Part shown: positions 1 to 14,473 of the stretch, one piece after another
How the letters are laid out: every line of letters starts with the position of its first letter
Position numbering within the stretch: the stretch's first letter is position 1
IMG/VR virus record: IMGVR_UViG_2675903575_000011
DNA length: 15,248 nucleotides
Origin: a virus
Taxonomy: Duplodnaviria > Heunggongvirae > Uroviricota > Caudoviricetes
Direction: 5' to 3' (one strand)
The notes under the pieces: model-generated
What the model was told of the DNA's origin: nothing
What the model saw: only the letters and a program-made list of their open reading frames with translations
The model's database searches: none
Translations under genes and position numbers: made by a program

Positions 1-1059
1 TTAAATGCGCTGGTCATTTGATATAGGTAAAATGCTTGTAAAGAGTTTTTCGTCATATAGTGCGTACTCAGGTATGTAATCACCATTGCTTTTACCTGTT
101 TGGAAGATAGAGGGGTCCTTGTCGATTAAAACATATAACTCAATGAGAATATTTCTTAGTCCCCAAAGCATTTGCTTTAGTTGTTTTTCATCATTGAATG
201 AGATGCTTATGGCTTCCGTATCTGGTTTTGGATGTTCAAGAATTATTGAGAAAAGATGTTCTTGGTATTTATAATCAATTCCAAGTAGTCTGCAAAGTTG
301 AATTATGTTTGATTCTATGAGTTGTAGGCTAACTAATTGGTCGTCATGATTTTTGTTGTTGGACTTAAGCGATTTGTTTATGTTGTTATAATGATTTGTT
401 GTTTTTCGAATAAAATCTTCTTCGACAACGGTGCTATAGCCATTATCAATGGAAGATGATTTGAAAATATTTTTATAAAGAGTGTACGGATGAACTACAG
501 ATAGTTCAATACTGTCTATATCACTAGTTTCTTTATTTAATCTTGATAATTTAAATGTTGGTAGTGTTTGGAATATATCAGCGAAGCTTTTCAGATGTGA
601 GTAATATGAATCAGTGGTATTTTTTTCAATAACAAGATTGATTTGCTTTTGTGTTTTTTCTATTTGGTTCTCTGTTTGTGTGGTTCTATGTATATTGTTG
701 ACGATTGCTGCAAGAGGTACCGAAGAAGCTAAAATAAATAATGGCAATTTAGAAATGTCAAGAAAGTGATTAAAACCGTCTGATGTGAAATTTAAATCGT
801 GGCCTTTCCAAGCCCAGAGGCCATACAAAACAAACATTTTTAACGGTACGATAATAGATGCTATGAATAATGGTTGTTTTAATAGATTTTTCTCATTTAG
901 TTTAAGCCAATTGAAGCAATAGAACATAAGTATCAATCCAAGTATATAAGCTACACTAAAGAAGATAAAAACTCTTGGACGATTAGTGTATATCAATGCT
1001 AAGGCAATTAAGATAGTAATGATTGCGTAGGTAATGATTAATGTGAGCTTTTTTTTCAT
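1..1059 (-). CDS. AT-rich membrane protein of unknown function (about 352 aa; 4 predicted N-terminal TM helices plus about 230-aa soluble C-terminal domain)
   Basis: Complete ORF on the minus strand (stop TAA at 1..3). Preferred start is ATG at 1057..1059 (MKKKLTLIITYAI...), 4 nt after the int stop, rather than the upstream in-frame ATG at 1101 that would overlap int. Hydrophobic stretches LTLIITYAIITILIALALIY, VFIFFSVAYILGLILMFYCF, LFIASIIVPLKMFVLYGLWAW, LPLFILASSVPLAAIV. Composition is markedly more AT-rich than the phage core by eye. Confidence 0.5.
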   Translation of the reverse strand: MKKKLTLIITYAIITILIALALIYTNRPRVFIFFSVAYILGLILMFYCFNWLKLNEKNLLKQPLFIASIIVPLKMFVLYGLWAWKGHDLNFTSDGFNHFLDISKLPLFILASSVPLAAIVNNIHRTTQTENQIEKTQKQINLVIEKNTTDSYYSHLKSFADIFQTLPTFKLSRLNKETSDIDSIELSVVHPYTLYKNIFKSSSIDNGYSTVVEEDFIRKTTNHYNNINKSLKSNNKNHDDQLVSLQLIESNIIQLCRLLGIDYKYQEHLFSIILEHPKPDTEAISISFNDEKQLKQMLWGLRNILIELYVLIDKDPSIFQTGKSNGDYIPEYALYDEKLFTSILPISNDQRI

Positions 1060-4658: not shown

Positions 4659-4957
4659 CAAGGGCAGTGCGTATCCATCAATTAAAAATTGCACCTAAGT
4701 ATTTCAACGTTGTGGTTGCAGGTCAAAAGACGGCTGAACTTCGTAAAGACGATCGTGGCTATAAAGTTGGTGATGTTCTTTCTCTTTGCGAATGGAAGCA
4801 TGGCGTATTTACGGGTAGGGAATGGGCCGCTGTTATCTCTCATGTGCTTCCGGTTAATGACGTCATGGCAGTTTCAGAACAATGGGTGATGCTATCAATT
4901 CGCCCATTAACCCCATTAGAAGCTTTAGGATATGTTATTGCAGGAGGTGCTGTATGA
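4655..4957 (+). CDS. DUF3850/ASCH-like small protein
   Basis: 100-aa ORF starting at ATG 4655 (ATGA overlap with the TraR stop). N-terminus [33 protein letters not shown] matches the conserved DUF3850/ASCH signature as recalled. Confidence 0.6.
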
Positions 4958-5811
4958 GCACCATCCTGAAATGGGCGGGTAATAAAACTACCATTATGTC
5001 CGAACTGAAAAAACATCTTCCTGCTGGCCCGCGACTGGTTGAACCTTTCGCGGGTTCCTGTGCTGTGATGATGGAGACGGATTACCCCAGCTATCTTGTT
5101 GCGGATATTAATCCTGATTTAATCAACCTCTATAAAAAGGTTGCTGCTGATTGTGAATCGTTTATATCTCGCGCCAGAGTTTTATTTGAGATCGCAAACA
5201 GGGAGGTGGCTTATTACAACATAAGGCAGGAGTTTAATTACTCAACTGAAATTACTGATTTCATGAAAGCGGTATATTTCCTGTATCTCAATCGTCACGG
5301 TTACCGTGGTTTATGTCGCTATAACAAGAGCGGGCATTTCAACATTCCCTACGGTAATTATAAAAATCCGTATTTCCCTGAAAAAGAAATTCGCGCATTT
5401 GCAGAAAAGGCCCAGCGAGCAACGTTTATCTGCGCCAGCTTTGATGAAACGCTGGCGATGTTGAAGGCGGGGGATGTGGTGTATTGCGATCCGCCGTATG
5501 ACGGTACGTTTTCCGGCTATCACACTGATGGTTTCACTGAAGATGACCAGTATCACCTGGCATCCGTTCTTGAACATCGGTCATCAGAAGGACATCCGGT
5601 CATTGTTTCTAACAGTGACACATCCCTGATCCGTTCGCTGTATCGCAATTTTACTCACCACTACATCAAGGCAAAACGCAGCATCGGCGTAGCAGCTGGT
5701 GAGAGTAAATCTGCAACAGAAATCATCGCTGTTTCTGGGGCACGCTGCTGGGTGGGATTTGATTCTTCGCGTGGCGTGGATAGTTCTGCCGTGTACGGAG
5801 TGCGTGCATGA
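4954..5811 (+). CDS. dam: DNA adenine methyltransferase (Dam-like, D12-class N6-adenine MTase)
   Basis: Motif I region ([11 protein letters not shown]) and catalytic DPPY motif ([11 protein letters not shown]); N-terminus LKWAGNK typical of Dam. Start ATG 4954 overlaps the upstream stop (ATGA). Confidence 0.9.
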
Positions 5812-8228
5812 GCCATGCTGATATGAACAACTGCAGCGGCTTTAACGAGGCCGCCGCAGCATTCTCATGGAACAGCCCGAAAAAGGCTATTAACCCTTAT
5901 CTGGACCCGGCGGAAGTTGCGCCGGTTTCTGCGCTTTCAAACCTGATCACTCTGTACGCTGCCGATAACGAGCAGGAACAACTGCGCCGCGAGGCACTGA
6001 GTGATCAGGTCTGGGAGCGTTATTTCTTTAATGAATCCCGTGATCCTGTCCAGCGCGAAATGGAGCAGGATAAGCTTATTAGCCGGGCAAAGCTGGCGCA
6101 TGAGCAGCAGCGTTTTAATCCGGACATGGTCATACTGGCGGACGTTAACGCCCAGCCTTCCCATATCAGCAAGCCGCTGATGCAACGTATTGAATACTTC
6201 AGCAGCCTGGGCAGGCCAAAGGCTTATTCCCGCTATTTGCGTGAGACGATTAAGCCATGTCTGGAACGACTGGAGCATGTACGCGACAGTCAGCTATCCA
6301 CTTCTTTTCGCTTTATGGCAAGCCATGAAGGGCTGGACGGCCTGCTGATCTTGCCTGAAATGAGTCAGGATCAGGTGAAACGCCTGTCTACTCTTGTCGC
6401 TGCGCATATGAGTATGTGTCTTGATGCCGCTTGTGGTGATTTGTACGCCACCGATGATGTTAAGCCAGAAGAAATCCGCAAGACATGGGAAAAGGTGGCA
6501 GCAGAAACCCTGCGACTGGATGTCATACCGCCTGCGTTTGAGCAACTCCGCCGGAAAAGAAACCGCCGTAAACCCGTGCCCTATGAACTCATTCCGGGTT
6601 CGCTGGCGCGTATGTTGTGCGCCGATTGGTGGTACCGGAAATTATGGAAGATGCGTTGCGAATGGCGGGAAGAGCAGTTGCGTGCTGTTTGCCTGGTCAG
6701 CAAAAAAGCATCTCCCTATGTCAGCTATGAAGCCGTGATGCATAAACGTGAGCAGCGCCGTAAGTCGCTGGAGTTTTTCCGTTCTCATGAACTGGTGAAC
6801 GAAGACGGCGACACGCTGGACATGGAGGATGTGGTAAACGCCAGCAGCAGCAACCCTGCGCATCGCCGCAATGAGATGATGGCCTGTGTTAAAGGTCTGG
6901 AGCTTATCGCGGAAATGCGCGGTGACTGCGCCGTTTTCTACACCATCACCTGTCCGTCACGTTTCCATTCCACGCTAAATAACGGCAGGCCCAACCCGAC
7001 CTGGACAAATGCGACGGTAAGACAAAGCAGTGATTATCTGGTCGGCATGTTTGCTGCATTTCGTAAGGCGATGCACAAAGCCGGGTTGCGCTGGTATGGC
7101 GTGCGGGTGGCTGAGCCGCATCATGACGGCACAGTTCACTGGCACCTGTTGTGTTTCATGCGCAAAAAAGACCGCCGCGCCATTACTGCATTGTTGCGTA
7201 AGTTTGCTATCCGTGAAGACCGCGAGGAGCTGGGTAATAACACGGGGCCACGCTTTAAGTCTGAGCTGATAAACCCGCGCAAAGGAACGCCGACTAGCTA
7301 CATCGCGAAATACATCAGTAAGAACATTGACGGGCGTGGTCTGGCTGGCGAGATCAGCAAGGAAACGGGTAAATCTCTGCGTGATAACGCTGAATACGTT
7401 AATGCCTGGGCGTCTCTGCATCGTGTTCAGCAATTCCGCTTCTTTGGCATTCCGGGGCGTCAGGCTTACCGTGAACTGCGATTGCTGGCTGGTCAGGCGG
7501 CAAGGCAACAGGGTGACAAAAAAGCAGGTGCGCCGGTACTGGATAACCAGCGCCTTGATGCCATTCTGGCTGCAGCTGATGCTGGTTGTTTTGCCACCTA
7601 CATCATGAAGCAGGGCGGCGTACTGGTTCCCCGTAAATATCACCTCATCAGAACCGCTTATGAAATCAACGAAGAGCCGACCGCCTATGGCGATCACGGC
7701 ATTCGTATTTATGGCATCTGGTCACCCATTGCAGAGGGCAAAATCTGCACTCATGCAGTGAAGTGGAAAATGGTTCGTAAGGCCGTTGACGTTCAGGAGG
7801 CGGCAGCCGACCAGGGCGCTTGCGCCCCTTGGACTCGGACTCGTGGCAATAACTGTCCCCTTGCTGAAAATTTGAACCAACAAGGGAAAGACAAATCAGC
7901 TTATGGGGATACCAGAACGGACATTACCCGCATGGATGACAAGGAGTTGCACGATTACCTGCACAGTATGAGCAAAAAAGAGCGCCGGGAACTGGCTGCA
8001 AGGTTACGCCTGGTGAAACCGAAACGGCGTAAAGACTACAAACAGCGAATTACAGACCATCAGCGACAGCAGCTCGTCTATGAGCTGAAGTCCAGAGGAT
8101 TTGATGGCAGCGAGAAAGAGGTCGGTTTACTCCTTCGCGGCGGCAGTATTCCGTCAGGAGCAGGCCTGCGTATCTTCTATCGGAACCAGCGTTTGCAGGA
8201 AGATGATAAGTGGCGGGATCTGTATTAA
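5808..8228 (+). CDS. A: Rolling-circle replication initiation endonuclease (P2/186 gpA family)
   Basis: 806-aa ORF in the gpA position after the early genes. HUH-type motif ([10 protein letters not shown]) with downstream Tyr-containing region (YIAKYISKN). Start ATG 5808 overlaps the dam stop (ATGA). Confidence 0.9.
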
Positions 8229-8579: not shown

Positions 8580-8813
8580 ATGCGCATTGAAATAATGATC
8601 GATAAAGAGCAGAAGATTAGCCAGTCTACCCTGGACGCTCTGGAGTCCGAGCTTTACCGCAACCTGCGCCCCCTGTATCCCAAAACGGTAATTCGTATCC
8701 GCAAAGGTAGCTCTAACGGTGTGGAACTTACCGGACTGCAACTGGACGAAGAAAGAAAACAAGTGATGAAAATTATGCAGAAAGTGTGGGAAGACGACAG
8801 CTGGCTGCATTAA
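8580..8813 (+). CDS. dinI: DinI-family protein
   Basis: 77-aa ORF, MRIEIMIDK...LDALESEL...WEDDSWLH, closely parallels E. coli DinI as recalled (MRIEVTIAK...IDALAGEL...WESADDWF). RBS gaggtg at 8567..8572. Confidence 0.8.
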   Translation: MRIEIMIDKEQKISQSTLDALESELYRNLRPLYPKTVIRIRKGSSNGVELTGLQLDEERKQVMKIMQKVWEDDSWLH

Positions 8814-8948
8814 GAAACGTTGCTGGCGTCTGAACTTGCTTCTGGCGTCAGCAAGGTTGAACAACGAGCCCTTGCGAGGCGTTAGCTCTGTAGTGCATGT
8901 CTATGCCGCATGAGATCGCATGATCGTTTGAGGATCGTTTTTGCTAAG

Positions 8949-8972
8949 GCCCGCCAGAACTGGCGGGCTTTT
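8949..8972 (+). terminator. Rho-independent terminator closing the LexA-controlled operon
   Basis: Perfect GC-rich inverted repeat GCCCGCCAG / CTGGCGGGC (8949..8957 and 8960..8968) followed by TTTT (8969..8972). Confidence 0.7.
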
Positions 8973-9017
8973 GCGTAGATCATGCAGGTGCATGAAAACC
9001 ACTGCATAAAGCGGGCA

Positions 9018-9036
9018 GGCGTGGCGGGGATACGAG
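9018..9036. other. Putative cos (cohesive-end) site
   Basis: GGCGTGGCGGGGATACGAG; the first 13 nt match the P2/186 19-nt cohesive-end sequence as I recall it (GGCG[A/T]GGCGGGGAAAGCA[C/T]). Located between the replication/SOS region and the portal gene, as expected. Confidence 0.4.
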
Positions 9037-9137
9037 CGCGCGCAACAGTGTAACAATCTGGATCTAATGTGATATAGTTACTGTAAATATTATTAACTAT
9101 TCTTATATGCATTATTAAATATTTTAATGGAGCGTTT

Positions 9138-10811
9138 ATGGAAAAATATCAAGATGAGGAATATGTAGATGATTTAACTGAGCGTGTTTTTCTCATTAAG
9201 CAACAACTGGAAGCGGGAAAACTAAAAATAGCTCATCATCTTGTAGAAGGTTTTATTGAAAGTTTTAAAAGAATAAGGCTGCGACAGGATGGTAAAGTTG
9301 ACCCTTCTACTGTTGATGGCAGAATAAGGGCTATGGGAGCAGCGGTTAATCACTTTTTAGAAAGAGAAGATATAAAAAACAAATACTCTATTCAGGACTT
9401 GCAAAGTTCTTACTTTAATATTCTTTTTAGTAATTTTGGCGAGTTGTTTTATCTGATGAAAAAAACTAATGCAACGCCACATAAAGCATCAAGTTTTTTT
9501 TCTCAACAAGAAGAATATGTTAAGCAAATAGAAGATATTTTTCCTGAGTTATATAATCAGGTAATAGAGTTTTGGCAGGTAACATCCGATATTGGTGTAA
9601 TACATTTGCAGGATGGTTCTCAGTTTAAAGCTAATTTTTCTGGTGACTTATTTCCTGCATTTGATGAGAATGCTGTCTCTATTGCAGGGTTGTATGTTGA
9701 TACTATTTCACTTCCATGTCCTATATTAAGAGTCGGTCGTCTCTATGAAAAGTCAGATAAGGCTGAGTTTACAAGGATACTTCTGAAGCATGTCCTAACA
9801 TGTATGACATATAAAGAAGTAGCGCTTGAAGATATAGAGCCAGCAATAGTATTAATTTTGCCGGATAGAAGAGATTTTGAAACTGAGAGCAAAAAAAATT
9901 TGATGAGTTTTTGTGAGCCTTATGCTCTGACTCATGCGCAATATCTCTATGATCGACGGTTCGAAAGCTACGATGAATTTCGAGATTTTAGTTATTCGAT
10001 GAATGATATTGATGCTGTTCTTAAAAATATTAAGAGAGCAGATAGACTTATTTTTGATACAGCATGGGGGCTAAATCCAAAAACTCAATTAGAAAAACTA
10101 CTATCTGATAAAAAAAGAATATCACGTAATGTTGTTGGTGATCATGCTGGAATGGAGGTTTTCCTTTCCTGCATTGGAAGAATGCCGCAAGCCTATTCAG
10201 CAAAATGTAATGCACAAGAACTTGGTAGTACTCCATATATAAATGCAGACACATCTTGGCTCTATTATACTTGGCTTATTGAGTACGAATCTCTTAATTT
10301 TGATGTCAATGATATTGAACTAAAAAATTTGCATATGGTTCATGCGTTATCTGCTGGTATGCAAGATGGTTTTTCATGGTTAGGAAATGTACCGGTCAAT
10401 AAAATAATTGAGTTGAGACGTAACAAATTGATGGAGGATGTAAGATCCATCTTATCAAATGGTGTTGACTCTTTAATCAATTCTTCGGCAGAGAGCTTTT
10501 CGAGGACAACGCAAAAAGTAATTGATAATGTAGACCGGGCTTTTATTGAACATCAAAGGATTCTTGCAAAAGCCCAAAAAGAGAAATTGAGAATTTACGG
10601 ACTAGATGTCCTACCATGTATCGCAAATGGTGCTATAGCAATTGCTGGAGCGCTGACTGGCAATACTACTTTAACGGCGTTAAGTGCAGGCCTTGGAGTA
10701 ATAGGTATTCCGAGTATTAGTGATATCAAATCTAAATTTAAGCAGAGGCAAGAGAAGCTTGATGCCTATCAACGTTCTGTTACAGGTATACTCTTTAGCC
10801 ATAAATCTTAA
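9138..10811 (+). CDS. Orphan AT-rich 557-aa protein, unknown function; candidate phage-borne defence/exclusion protein (soluble N-terminal region plus C-terminal glycine-rich hydrophobic hairpin)
   Basis: Long uninterrupted ORF with RBS (ggag at 9129..9132) 5 nt before ATG 9138. Composition visibly AT-rich versus flanking phage genes. No Walker A or other motif I can recognise. C-terminal ANGAIAIAGALTG...LSAGLGVIGIPSI is hydrophobic and glycine-zipper-like. Convergent with the portal gene and ended by a hairpin. Confidence 0.7.
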   Translation: MEKYQDEEYVDDLTERVFLIKQQLEAGKLKIAHHLVEGFIESFKRIRLRQDGKVDPSTVDGRIRAMGAAVNHFLEREDIKNKYSIQDLQSSYFNILFSNFGELFYLMKKTNATPHKASSFFSQQEEYVKQIEDIFPELYNQVIEFWQVTSDIGVIHLQDGSQFKANFSGDLFPAFDENAVSIAGLYVDTISLPCPILRVGRLYEKSDKAEFTRILLKHVLTCMTYKEVALEDIEPAIVLILPDRRDFETESKKNLMSFCEPYALTHAQYLYDRRFESYDEFRDFSYSMNDIDAVLKNIKRADRLIFDTAWGLNPKTQLEKLLSDKKRISRNVVGDHAGMEVFLSCIGRMPQAYSAKCNAQELGSTPYINADTSWLYYTWLIEYESLNFDVNDIELKNLHMVHALSAGMQDGFSWLGNVPVNKIIELRRNKLMEDVRSILSNGVDSLINSSAESFSRTTQKVIDNVDRAFIEHQRILAKAQKEKLRIYGLDVLPCIANGAIAIAGALTGNTTLTALSAGLGVIGIPSISDIKSKFKQRQEKLDAYQRSVTGILFSHKS

Positions 10812-10816
10812 TGTAG

Positions 10817-10837
10817 AGGGCCGAGGTATTCGGCCCT
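10817..10837 (+). terminator. Hairpin between the convergent 557-aa gene and portal gene; likely terminator
   Basis: AGGGCCG (10817..10823), 7-nt loop, CGGCCCT (10831..10837), followed by TAGTTTTAT on the plus strand. Confidence 0.5.
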
Positions 10838-10842
10838 TAGTT

Positions 10843-11874
10843 TTATATGAAACTGTATGGCATGAATTTTATTATGTCATCTTTGAGCCATTTATTGAGT
10901 TCTTCTATTCTGTTTTGTAGCGGTATCAATTCATTACGCATAAAAACCTTACTAGCCTTCTCCACATCCCCAAATCCCCCAACATTATTCGGCATTATCC
11001 CCATCATTTGCGGCGGCACTCGGTGTGCTGCCATCATGTCATCCCGGCTCACGTTCTTGATATTCAAAAATTCATCCTTTGCCGCGACTTCTGACAGAGG
11101 AATAATCTGAAGCCCGTCTTTTTTGCCGTTAGGCGAGTACATAAACAGGTTGCGGAAGTTGCCTGGACCTTTGGCGCTTTTCATCGCGTTACGGAGATTG
11201 TTTACATCTTCCTGGTTCTGCGCGGCGTCGGTCATGTACATGATGAAGCCTGCATGGCTGCCGTTGATGTAATACTTACGGCGGAACAGCGTGGCGGACT
11301 CGTTGAGCAGGGCTGACGGAATGGCAGAAAGATAACCGGGCAGGCCGTAGATCTCCTGGTTGATATCTGGTTCCATCAGATGAAAAATGCTGCCTTTCGT
11401 GAACTGATACGGTTGCGTGGTCATACCGTATTGCACAAACCAGTAGGTATCCAGGTCTAACCCGCGTCGGGTATATTTTGCCAGGGCAGGCTCAAGAGCG
11501 ATAATTTCACCGAACCGGTTCGTGCGTTTCTCCAGATAGGCGTTACCAAATACCAGATAGTCCTGCACAAAACGTGAAAAAGCCTGCTGGCTGAGCAGCG
11601 GGTGAGGGATGTAGGTGCTGGTCAGAATGTTGCACTTTACTGCAATCGGGGAACTATGATGAACGGCAGCGCGGAAGGTGCGCGCCAGTCCGTCAAAGCT
11701 GACGGGCGGCTCATACCAGCGGTCCATCTGTACGCATTCCACATAATCCAGCAGTTCTCGGCGGTCCAGAACAGGAACGGGATCGCCGAAGCTGAATGCT
11801 TCGGCTGTAGTTTGACTTTTAAGCTGGATCTGTTTCGTCGCCGCAGCGCGGTTCTTCTTACTCTTTCCCATCAA
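10843..11874 (-). CDS. Q: Portal protein (P2 gpQ family)
   Basis: 343-aa ORF, the size of P2 gpQ, immediately downstream of and overlapping (ATGA) the large terminase gene on the minus strand, as in the P2 PQ operon. Confidence 0.85.
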   Translation of the reverse strand: MMGKSKKNRAAATKQIQLKSQTTAEAFSFGDPVPVLDRRELLDYVECVQMDRWYEPPVSFDGLARTFRAAVHHSSPIAVKCNILTSTYIPHPLLSQQAFSRFVQDYLVFGNAYLEKRTNRFGEIIALEPALAKYTRRGLDLDTYWFVQYGMTTQPYQFTKGSIFHLMEPDINQEIYGLPGYLSAIPSALLNESATLFRRKYYINGSHAGFIMYMTDAAQNQEDVNNLRNAMKSAKGPGNFRNLFMYSPNGKKDGLQIIPLSEVAAKDEFLNIKNVSRDDMMAAHRVPPQMMGIMPNNVGGFGDVEKASKVFMRNELIPLQNRIEELNKWLKDDIIKFMPYSFI

Positions 11875-13385
11875 AAAAACTCCACAATATTGCTGGTATT
11901 GGCGGATTCGCCCTGCAGCGGTTCGTTAAACAGTGCGTGCATCGTTGCCCAGGCCAGATCGGCGTGGCTGGCTTCTTCGCTGCGGCTGGCTTCATAGGTC
12001 GGGCGGTTGCCACTGGCGGTGGTGGCGCGACGGATTGCCATAAAGGACTGCGCTATGTCGGTGTGTCCGGCGTCAAACTCCAGACGGCGGTGGCTGATAA
12101 TGTCGTAGGCCTTGAGTACCAGGGCGTTTTTAACGTTGGGGTTGTAGACAAACTCCCGGACGGCAGGAAAAAACGCTTTCACGTTCTCGTAAACCCCGTG
12201 ACCAACGCCGGTTGAGTCGATACCGATATAGGTCACGTTGTACTGTTCGGTCAGTTTTTTGATGGCGTCAGCCTGGGCGCGGAAGTCCATTCCGCGCCAC
12301 TGGTGACGCTCAAGAATGCGGAACTTACCGCCCGGCACGGCTGGCGGCGCCACCACCACGCATCCGGCGCTGTCGCCGTTCTGCGTACCTTTCGCCGGGT
12401 CATATCCGATCCACACTTCGCGCCAGCCAAACGGGCGCAGGGCCAGTGCATGAAAGTCGGTCCAGACTTCCCAACTGTCCACCATGCACGCCTGCAGCTC
12501 GCTGAGTGGGAACACAGACGCGAGATCGTCCACGAACTCACACATCAGCAGGTTCTGGTATTCGTCCGGGCTGTACTCCATGCGCAACTGGTCGAGGTCG
12601 AACAGGTTACAGCCGCCGCGCACCGCATCTTCCACAGTGACTATCTGGCGGTACTGCCCGTCTGCGCACAGCAGGCCGGGGGCCAGATTGCTGTGGGACA
12701 GGTCGATGTCCACCTTATCGGCTTTGTTGCGCCCTCGGTTGAACAGCGCACCGGACCAGAACGGATAAGCACTGTGTGTCAGGCTGGATGGCGTGGAAAA
12801 ATAGGTTTGTCGCCATTTTTTGTGAATAGCCATACCGGAAGCCACTTTGCGCAGCTCCTGGAATTTCGGTATCCAGAAATATTCATCCAGATACAGGTTG
12901 CCGTGGTAACTCTGGGCCGTGCGGGCATTGGTGCCGAGGAAGTACAGCGTGGCCCCGTTAGGAAGCACCATCGGATCGCCTTTCAGCTCCACCTCCACTT
13001 CTTTGGCGAAGTCGATGATGTACTGCTTAAAGACGTGGGCCTGAGCCTTGCTGGCGGAAAGGAAAATCTGGTTACGCCCGGTTAGCAGGGCGTCAATCAG
13101 GGCTTCACGGGCAAAATAGAAGGTCGCGCCGATCTGGCGTGACTTCAGCAGGTTGCGGATGCGGTTGGTTTTTCCGGCTTCCCACCAGTGGCGCTGGTAG
13201 TTGAACATGGAGGAATGGAAGATTTCTTCCAGCTTCTCAATCTGTTCATCGGTGAAAACGTTCTTTTCCGGCTGACGGCGCGGGCCTTTGTTGCGGTTGG
13301 CGACGTTAGGGTTTAAGTCGGCTTCGTTGCCGCCATTGTTAAACTTGCCGATCCGCGCATGGCGCTCCGACTGGCGCGCCAGCAG
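11871..13385 (-). CDS. P: Terminase large subunit (P2 gpP family), partial: N-terminal coding end lost in the assembly gap
   Basis: 504 codons of continuous ORF reading into the N-run; size and position upstream of Q and divergent from O-N match gpP. The N-terminal ATPase motifs would lie in the gap. Confidence 0.85.
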   Translation of the reverse strand: MLARQSERHARIGKFNNGGNEADLNPNVANRNKGPRRQPEKNVFTDEQIEKLEEIFHSSMFNYQRHWWEAGKTNRIRNLLKSRQIGATFYFAREALIDALLTGRNQIFLSASKAQAHVFKQYIIDFAKEVEVELKGDPMVLPNGATLYFLGTNARTAQSYHGNLYLDEYFWIPKFQELRKVASGMAIHKKWRQTYFSTPSSLTHSAYPFWSGALFNRGRNKADKVDIDLSHSNLAPGLLCADGQYRQIVTVEDAVRGGCNLFDLDQLRMEYSPDEYQNLLMCEFVDDLASVFPLSELQACMVDSWEVWTDFHALALRPFGWREVWIGYDPAKGTQNGDSAGCVVVAPPAVPGGKFRILERHQWRGMDFRAQADAIKKLTEQYNVTYIGIDSTGVGHGVYENVKAFFPAVREFVYNPNVKNALVLKAYDIISHRRLEFDAGHTDIAQSFMAIRRATTASGNRPTYEASRSEEASHADLAWATMHALFNEPLQGESANTSNIVEFF

Positions 13386-13901
13386 NNNNNNNNNNNNNNN
13401 NNNNNNNNNNNNNNNNNNNNNNNNNNNNNNNNNNNNNNNNNNNNNNNNNNNNNNNNNNNNNNNNNNNNNNNNNNNNNNNNNNNNNNNNNNNNNNNNNNNN
13501 NNNNNNNNNNNNNNNNNNNNNNNNNNNNNNNNNNNNNNNNNNNNNNNNNNNNNNNNNNNNNNNNNNNNNNNNNNNNNNNNNNNNNNNNNNNNNNNNNNNN
13601 NNNNNNNNNNNNNNNNNNNNNNNNNNNNNNNNNNNNNNNNNNNNNNNNNNNNNNNNNNNNNNNNNNNNNNNNNNNNNNNNNNNNNNNNNNNNNNNNNNNN
13701 NNNNNNNNNNNNNNNNNNNNNNNNNNNNNNNNNNNNNNNNNNNNNNNNNNNNNNNNNNNNNNNNNNNNNNNNNNNNNNNNNNNNNNNNNNNNNNNNNNNN
13801 NNNNNNNNNNNNNNNNNNNNNNNNNNNNNNNNNNNNNNNNNNNNNNNNNNNNNNNNNNNNNNNNNNNNNNNNNNNNNNNNNNNNNNNNNNNNNNNNNNNN
13901 N
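13386..13901. other. Assembly gap (516 N)
   Basis: Uninterrupted run of n; length is consistent with the X counts in the ORF track. Confidence 1.
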
Positions 13902-13903
13902 CA

Positions 13904-14473
13904 ACGGAGTCCCTGGTGGAACTGGTGAAAAAAGGCCAGAAATTATTCACCTCTATGGAAGTCAGCCCGAAGTTCGCTGATACGGGCAAAGCCTATCTGG
14001 TCGGCCTGGCTGCCACTGATGACCCTGCCAGTCTGGGTACGGAAATGCTGACATTCAGCGCCAGTGCAGCCCATAACCCGCTGGCAAACCGCAAGCAGAA
14101 TCCTGCCAATCTCTTTACCGCTGCAGAGGAAACGGTGATCGAACTGGAAGAAATCCAGGACGACAAACCGTCCCTGTTTGCCCGCGTCACGGCGCTGTTT
14201 ACCAAAAAAGAGCAGTCCGATGACGCCCGGTTCTCTGATGTGCATAAGGCCGTGGAGTTGGTCGCCACTGAGCAGCAGAACCTGAGCGCACGCACCGAAA
14301 AATCCCTGTCTGAGCAGGAAGAACGCCTGTCTGAGCTGGAGACTGCCCTGCAGGCACAGCAAACCGCCTTTAACGAACTGGTGGACAAGCTGAGTCATGA
14401 AGACAGTCGCCAGGACTACCGCCAGCGTGCAACAGGCGGTAACGCCCCCGCTGACACTCTGACCAATTGCTGA
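13904..14473 (+). CDS. O: Capsid scaffolding protein (P2 gpO family), partial: 5' end in the gap
   Basis: ORF reading out of the gap, ending 16 nt before the major capsid gene. Acidic coiled-coil-like C-terminus (EQEERLSELETALQAQQTAFNELVDKL) typical of scaffolding proteins; position between P and N. Confidence 0.6.
   Translation, partial: TESLVELVKKGQKLFTSMEVSPKFADTGKAYLVGLAATDDPASLGTEMLTFSASAAHNPLANRKQNPANLFTAAEETVIELEEIQDDKPSLFARVTALFTKKEQSDDARFSDVHKAVELVATEQQNLSARTEKSLSEQEERLSELETALQAQQTAFNELVDKLSHEDSRQDYRQRATGGNAPADTLTNC

Follow-up and report, generated by a model that had tools for sequence, protein, structure and literature searches.

The window (the whole stretch of DNA analysed here, 15,248 nucleotides long) carries, in order, a Dam methylase gene (4882-5811, + strand, from its Pfam match), the replication gene A of the P2 gpA family (5808..8228, +; Pfam Phage_GPA, E = 1e-127), a DinI-family gene (8580..8813, +; Pfam DinI), a gene for an uncharacterised protein of 557 amino acids (9138..10811, +), the portal gene Q (10843..11874, -; Pfam Phage_portal) and the large terminase gene P, whose longest open reading frame (ORF) covers 11871..13904 (-; Pfam Terminase_6N and Terminase_6C). 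On the replication side the backbone ends with the DinI-family gene, annotated as such in CP019275, Fels-2 and SEN8. A putative DNA-packaging site, cos, follows it at 9018-9036, giving the gene order A - DinI - cos - 557-aa ORF (+) - Q (-) - P (-). A, Q and P, as well as the start of O, form long intact ORFs, and the small terminase gene M lies beyond the window. The longest terminase ORF has 677 aa and a TTG start; its annotated homologue in CP019275 has 588 aa, which suggests that the true start of P is probably near 13637; the divergent promoter region between it and O (at 13916) would then be about 280 bp long.

At 9018-9036 the + strand reads GGCGTGGCGGGGATACGAG, a 19-mer present in a single copy in the window. 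By homology this would be the 19-nucleotide cohesive-end sequence, that is, the interval between the two strand cuts, whose positions are likewise taken from related phages. The degenerate 13-mer pattern GGCGWGGCGGGGA has one perfect match in the window, and shuffled sequences average 0.44 matches even when two mismatches are allowed. The preliminary description of this DNA had recognised the 13-mer GGCGTGGCGGGGA as the start of the P2/186 cohesive end, and comparison with the annotated sites bears this out: the window agrees with the cohesive end of 186 (cos 1..19, GGCGTGGCGGGGAAAGCAT) at 13/13 positions of the 13-mer and 15/19 of the 19-mer, and with that of P2 (cosL 1..19, GGCGAGGCGGGGAAAGCAC) at 12/13 and 14/19.

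The alignment with the P2 and 186 cos regions that had been proposed as a check was made after joining the right and left ends of each genome, and the flanks fall into register along with the 19-mer. A GCATGAGAT.GCAT block lies about 110 bp upstream of the 19-mer, GGTGCAT.AAAACC and AAGCGGGC stand directly before it and GCGCGC directly after it; the elements adjoining the 19-mer are conserved in P2, 186 and P4. The satellite P4, which has the same flank blocks as the window, reportedly has nothing but the cos region in common with P2, according to passages in two papers (PMC9122126; PMC9594776). The window 19-mer is exactly the sequence given as cos for Salmonella phage SEN8, where it is described as 'putative' and derived from genome annotation (PMC5427200). 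In the SEN8 record (NC_047753) this 'putative cos site' occupies 1..19, and the last base of the record is homologous to position 9017 of the window. The same 19-mer also occurs in Fels-2, in Yersinia phage MLG42 and in p13P477T-2, a 37.4-kb circular E. coli record. Three marks of a P2-family cos are found here: an end of the GGCG(A/T)GGCGGGGA type, the flanks that make up a core of about 55 bp, and a place between the replication genes and Q in a genome that encodes gpP.

How specific is the 19-mer itself? We scanned one genome per species (596 Gb) for exact copies and obtained 54 stretches; most are Enterobacterales prophages in which gpA precedes the site and Q and P follow it. Chance alone would give about four exact matches (2 x 596e9 / 4^19), and three or four do stand in flanks without any similarity to those of the window; all others have conserved flanks. 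The site is thus defined by its flanks, not by the 19-mer alone. Across 71 distinct relatives the 19-mer is invariant or nearly so. Judged by homology, 9018-9036 is almost certainly the cos, the DNA-packaging cut site, of a Fels-2-like prophage of the P2 family.

Some of the related elements deserve a separate mention. CP019275.1 (p13P477T-2), deposited for E. coli 13P477T as a circular 'plasmid' of 37,446 bp, is a near-identical, complete copy of the phage; the prophage is also in the chromosome of this strain, and its segment of cos and cargo recurs in a 22.6-kb record (NZ_CP019279, NZ_CP019273). CP019275.1 is probably an excised or replicating form of the phage deposited as a plasmid, and it is the only hint of prophage activity. 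In the betaproteobacterial Chitinimonas sp. BJB300 and C. taiwanensis we found three to five exact copies of the 19-mer per genome, with recognisable cos flanks. One copy adjoins Q and P, one adjoins a P4-like integrase and the others adjoin neither, which suggests several helper and satellite elements with one common cos type.

We then ask how far the site extends. An ungapped conservation profile, anchored at cos and built from 71 distinct sequences of IMG/VR relatives, shows identity of mostly 0.8-1.0 inside 8893-9043 and a background of 0.15-0.6 on both flanks, with sharp edges at 8893 and 9043/9044. Phage BLAST matches begin at 8890-8895 and finish at 9043-9053. We call this 151-bp stretch (8893..9043, +) the cos module; it comprises a 125-bp upstream arm, the 19-mer and GCGCGCA, and is the likely region of terminase recognition and cleavage. 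The preliminary description had assigned that role to the whole non-coding stretch 8814..9137. As conservation is confined to 8893-9043, only that part of the proposal is retained: 8814-8892 is the 3' flank of DinI, and 9044-9137 is an AT-rich leader of the cargo gene. A 76-aa ORF with an ATG start on the minus strand (8882-9112), which runs across cos, is most likely spurious, since it extends over both the cos module, which is conserved and non-coding, and part of the variable leader.

Two elements stand out in the upstream arm. The first is a block of GCAT repeats, GTGCATG...GCATGAGATCGCATGA (8893..8923, +), which we propose as candidate binding repeats for the small terminase. GCAT or ATGC occurs seven times in 8893-9017, the highest count for 125 bp anywhere in the window (mean 1.06), and the positions are kept in P2, 186, P4 and the Chitinimonas elements. 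TGCAT was tried as the repeat unit and discarded, being without window-wide enrichment; it is the shorter GCAT/ATGC that is locally enriched. The second element is a GC-rich inverted repeat followed by TTTTG (8943..8974, +), which resembles an intrinsic terminator (RNA fold -25.1 kcal/mol, z = -4.2) and falls, in the alignment, on the annotated terminator t95b of 186. Its stem, CGCCAG...CTGGCG, is kept in 186, P4, the Fels-2-like phages and the Chitinimonas elements and is absent in P2; conservation is at the sequence level, without covariation. A scan of the whole window against Rfam at gathering thresholds returned no RNA family, so that the island is not accounted for by a known structured RNA. 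The hairpin probably halts transcription of the DinI operon ahead of cos. It may be a terminator alone, like t95b of 186, or a protein-binding inverted repeat as well.

Is the entire module then devoted to packaging? The interval 8893-9043 could instead be kept mainly as a terminator or regulator of a DinI/tum-type operon, with only the core of about 55 bp serving packaging. The strength of the hairpin with its T-run and its positional homology to t95b fit such a role; moreover, P2, which lacks the hairpin, still packages P4, which bears it, and the portions of the literature that treat the site stress the 55-bp core, credited there to Ziermann and Calendar 1990 (as cited in PMC5694545 and PMC9594776). 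However, conservation reaches 50 bp upstream of the hairpin, the GCAT repeats are common to P2, 186 and P4 despite unrelated upstream genes, and the island is intact with or without an adjacent DinI. Longer cos flanks also improved the transduction of P2 cosmids by orders of magnitude, as described in part of PMC9594776. We therefore regard a mainly regulatory role of the module as unlikely, and favour a packaging module of the full 151 bp.

The right-hand breakpoint of the cos island lies 7 bp past the cohesive-end sequence. At 9044 the GC content falls from about 0.5 to 0.31-0.36, and conservation collapses at the same position. The leader that begins here (9044..9137, +) is AT-rich and has, by consensus match, a promoter-like site at 9050-9078 (GTAACA-17-TATAGT, TG) and a GGAG before the ATG of the cargo gene. 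At the other end, a terminator-like hairpin (10816..10838, +; 10-bp stem with six GC pairs, T-rich tail) stands between the stop codons of the cargo gene and Q, and sister loci have other hairpins at this place. We rejected the idea that another cos might separate the cargo gene from Q: the gap is only 31 bp and is filled by this hairpin, so there is no room for an alternative site on the Q side. The portal gene itself seems to contain the end of the variable segment. Identity of Q to its relatives is mostly 0.85-0.95, drops to 0.74, 0.65 and 0.56 over the last 100 nucleotides or so (10843-10945), and is about 0.3 past the stop. The C-terminal motif VFVRNEL.PLQ...N.W....I.F..Y is kept despite this nucleotide divergence. 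Because these last 100 nucleotides (about 30 codons) diverge along with the cargo, we place the right junction of the cassette inside Q.

The cargo protein has no match in Pfam, NCBIfam or PHROG. It belongs to a family of about 555-560 aa, mostly from Proteobacteria, whose members are nearly all unnamed or 'hypothetical'. A weak and partial match links it to the DitB profile of PADLOC (PDLC03827; E = 7e-10), covering residues 195-452 of 557 and profile positions 95-344 of 361; this profile is matched by 25 of 39 members of the family. We found no DitA partner: between cos and Q, the cargo strand has no ORF of 60 aa or more besides the 557-aa gene. The predicted fold is confident (pLDDT 82), and no relative of it was found among solved structures. 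GC content in the cargo gene is 0.30-0.42, against about 0.52 in the backbone. Of 5426 complete E. coli genomes, 17 have this cos paired with this cargo, and 1272 match some part of the query 8814-10842.

A homologue with 44% identity in Aeromonas hydrophila (6001-7683 of its locus) is part of an island that also encodes a P4-type integrase (Arm-DNA-bind_3) and AlpA, and adjoins a gene with an NA37 domain and a radical-SAM gene. A Pfam scan of its neighbours returned no family suggestive of a DitA partner. The integrase/AlpA island makes this family a mobile-element cargo beyond P2-like phages. From the partial DitB match and the neighbourhood, a role in defence is plausible for the 557-aa protein, a distant DitB-like candidate anti-phage factor; its gene stands in a documented defence hotspot (see below) and is a reasonable candidate for anti-phage testing.

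The preliminary description had also considered a cargo gene on the portal side of cos unusual, P2 old and tin being on the replication side. The sides themselves were given correctly, as both the gene order here and the layout of P2 show, and the window has no cargo of the old/tin type between A/orf91 and cos. The placement, on the other hand, turns out to be the rule among the closest relatives. We collected the best 80 IMG/VR matches with a portal protein at least 92% identical, a set of loci that are not phylogenetically independent. The 19-mer occurs exactly once in 74 of these 80 loci, and none was found in the other six. Extra DNA separates cos from Q in 73 of the 74 and exceeds 600 bp in 69; only one locus has a P2-like spacing of about 180 bp. 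The distance from cos to the stop of Q ranges from 179 to 3048 bp (median about 1620 bp), with 51 distinct lengths among the 74 loci. In the scan of one genome per species, whose matches come from about 45 species, the cos-Q distance is at least 650 bp in 23 of the 28 loci with Q in range.

The content of this slot is as variable as its length. Counting proteins of 90 aa or more, the 71 distinct cos-Q intervals yield 82 different ones, in 58 clusters. Like the 557-aa gene, all 82 of the corresponding ORFs are opposite in strand to Q and run in the direction from cos to Q. The HNH gene of SEN8, outside the census sample, is an exception to this strand rule. The cargo of sister slots includes AbiU/AIPR, a retron RT-Toprim, GmrSD, TIR, a Cap4 nuclease, SieB, DprA with a PRTase, and HEC-06. 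The replication side is filled as well in 46 of 66 loci (about 70%), and 43 loci have cargo on both sides of cos. The remaining 20 of the 66 have a minimal gap of 204 bp on that side. In the window, the distance from the DinI stop to cos is 204 bp and falls in this minimum class, so the replication-side slot is empty here.

Such hypervariable content at a fixed place between A and Q is what characterises the gpA-gpQ hotspot. A cos-proximal defence hotspot between these genes was described by Rousset et al. 2022 in the relevant part of PMC9122126, its content being of the kind listed above for the sister slots, and the cosL-gpQ interval is already termed a hotspot in a passage of PMC5694545. 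A foreign gene between cos and Q is thus a normal and already described arrangement in the Fels-2-like lineage; the 73 of 74 clade loci, SEN8, Fels-2, PhiCTX and the earlier hotspot literature all speak against calling it unusual. As a genome architecture this is not new: cargo on the portal side of cos has been described since ctx of PhiCTX.

P2 itself and its close relatives behave otherwise. A second census, with P2's own Q as query and loci at least 99% identical, gave a Q-cos gap of 156-170 bp in 77 of 79 loci (1439 and 1875 bp in the other two), whereas the 34 intervals from A to cos take 30 different lengths, between 1670 and 5669 bp. The two lineages thus differ in the side of cos that they fill: P2-proper fills the replication side only, and the Fels-2-like phages almost always the portal side and often the replication side too. 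Hotspot papers treat A..Q as one hotspot in the sections that concern it (PMC9122126; PMC13586616), and its resolution into two slots around the 151-bp cos island refines this picture modestly without adding a new type of feature.

This resolution can be taken further. The gpA-gpQ region may consist of two clade-specific slots split by the cos island, in which portal-side cassettes would be swapped as units (between ends at 9043/9044 and in the last 30 or so portal codons), each bringing its own portal C-terminus and terminator, with the DitB-like 557-aa gene acting as a single-gene anti-phage system. We put this forward tentatively, as a possibility that we would not yet call probable.

In its simpler form, the interpretation that we consider very probable is that the window belongs to a P2-family phage of the Fels-2-like (Felsduovirus) type, in which 9018-9036 is the 19-nucleotide cohesive end within a 151-bp cos module and a portal-side cargo slot lies beyond. 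The gpP terminase and the small subunit would recognise 8893-9043 and make a staggered cut on the circular genome, leaving 5' overhangs of 19 nucleotides. The recognition sequence would lie almost wholly upstream of the cut (GCAT repeats, hairpin and 55-bp core), with about 7 bp downstream. For this reason the DNA past 9043 would be permissive and form a slot before the convergent Q, nearly always holding, on our model, a self-contained cassette with its own leader, genes reading from cos to Q and a terminator. The cargo gene is internal in the prophage and would be the first gene from the left cohesive end in the virion. This agrees with the preliminary description, which had put it at the end of the chromosome: if the DNA is cut as in P2 and 186, the gene would start 121 nucleotides from the left cohesive end. 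With the virion ends and the packaging signal placed by homology, annotation and the building of cos plasmids become easier.

Does the position at the chromosome end matter in itself? The cargo could owe its place to entering the cell, or being expressed, first on infection. It lies about 120-360 nucleotides from cosL in the window, SEN8, P4 and PhiCTX, and its orientation is uniformly away from cos; both points favour this reading. We found nothing on the polarity of packaging or injection for the P2 family in the literature searched. However, P2-proper keeps equally diverse cargo on the opposite side of cos, 43 of the Fels-2-like loci fill both sides, and the permissive flanks of a short essential island offer a simpler account, so that a function of the end position seems to us improbable. 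That the 19-mer is a relic or a chance likeness, with the packaging site elsewhere or the prophage defective, is a highly improbable reading: the cut positions are placed by homology, three or four chance copies do exist in unrelated genomes and the near-identical CP019275 has many frameshifted genes (which may be sequencing errors), but none of the chance copies has similar flanks; the window, by contrast, has the complete 151-bp module at its canonical place between A and Q, with A, Q, P and the start of O intact and with the 19-mer and its flanks strongly conserved in 71 distinct relatives beside neighbours at background level.

The preferred reading, of a Fels-2-like cos with a portal-side slot, can finally be set against named systems. 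SEN8 and Fels-2 are the closest, with an identical 19-mer (ggcgtggcggggatacgag) and the same order DinI - cos - cargo - Q. The cos block of Fels-2 is 95.4% identical to the window over 151 bp, and the last 123 bp of the SEN8 record are 90.4% identical. They differ in their cargo, a 333-aa hypothetical protein and an HNH endonuclease in SEN8, which also has a gene on the replication side, and a 565-aa hypothetical protein in Fels-2. Both are Salmonella phages, unlike the window, whose host is E. coli. P2, 186 and P4 have in common with the window the GGCG(A/T)GGCGGGGA end, the flanks with the upstream GCAT blocks and the location between the replication region and Q; what differs is the final six bases of the 19-mer, TACGAG in the window against AAGCAC or AAGCAT in these three. 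P2 and 186 differ further in that Q lies within about 170 bp of cos, without cargo, whereas P4 has its variable genes gop, beta and cII just past the 19-mer, on the same side of cos as in the window.

More distant phages present a similar layout. In PhiCTX, cosL (1-21) is followed by ctx (362-1222), with its own promoter and terminators, and by the Q homologue (1417-2469); in the cosL-ORF5 region of phiRSY1, cargo with its own promoter and terminator likewise lies between cosL and a convergent Q homologue. These phages differ from the window in their hosts (Pseudomonas and Ralstonia), in their cos (21 nucleotides in PhiCTX) and in their cargo, a toxin or a Vgr-like protein. At the protein level, the central region of the 557-aa protein matches the DitB profile of the Aditi system, but the profile has 361 positions against 557 aa, and the slot is without a DitA-like partner. 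The gpA-gpQ defence hotspot, as far as the consulted parts of the sources describe it, is the nearest counterpart of the slot as a whole: it is a hypervariable region close to cos, and the sister loci of the window carry known or validated families such as DprA-PRTase, retrons and AbiU.
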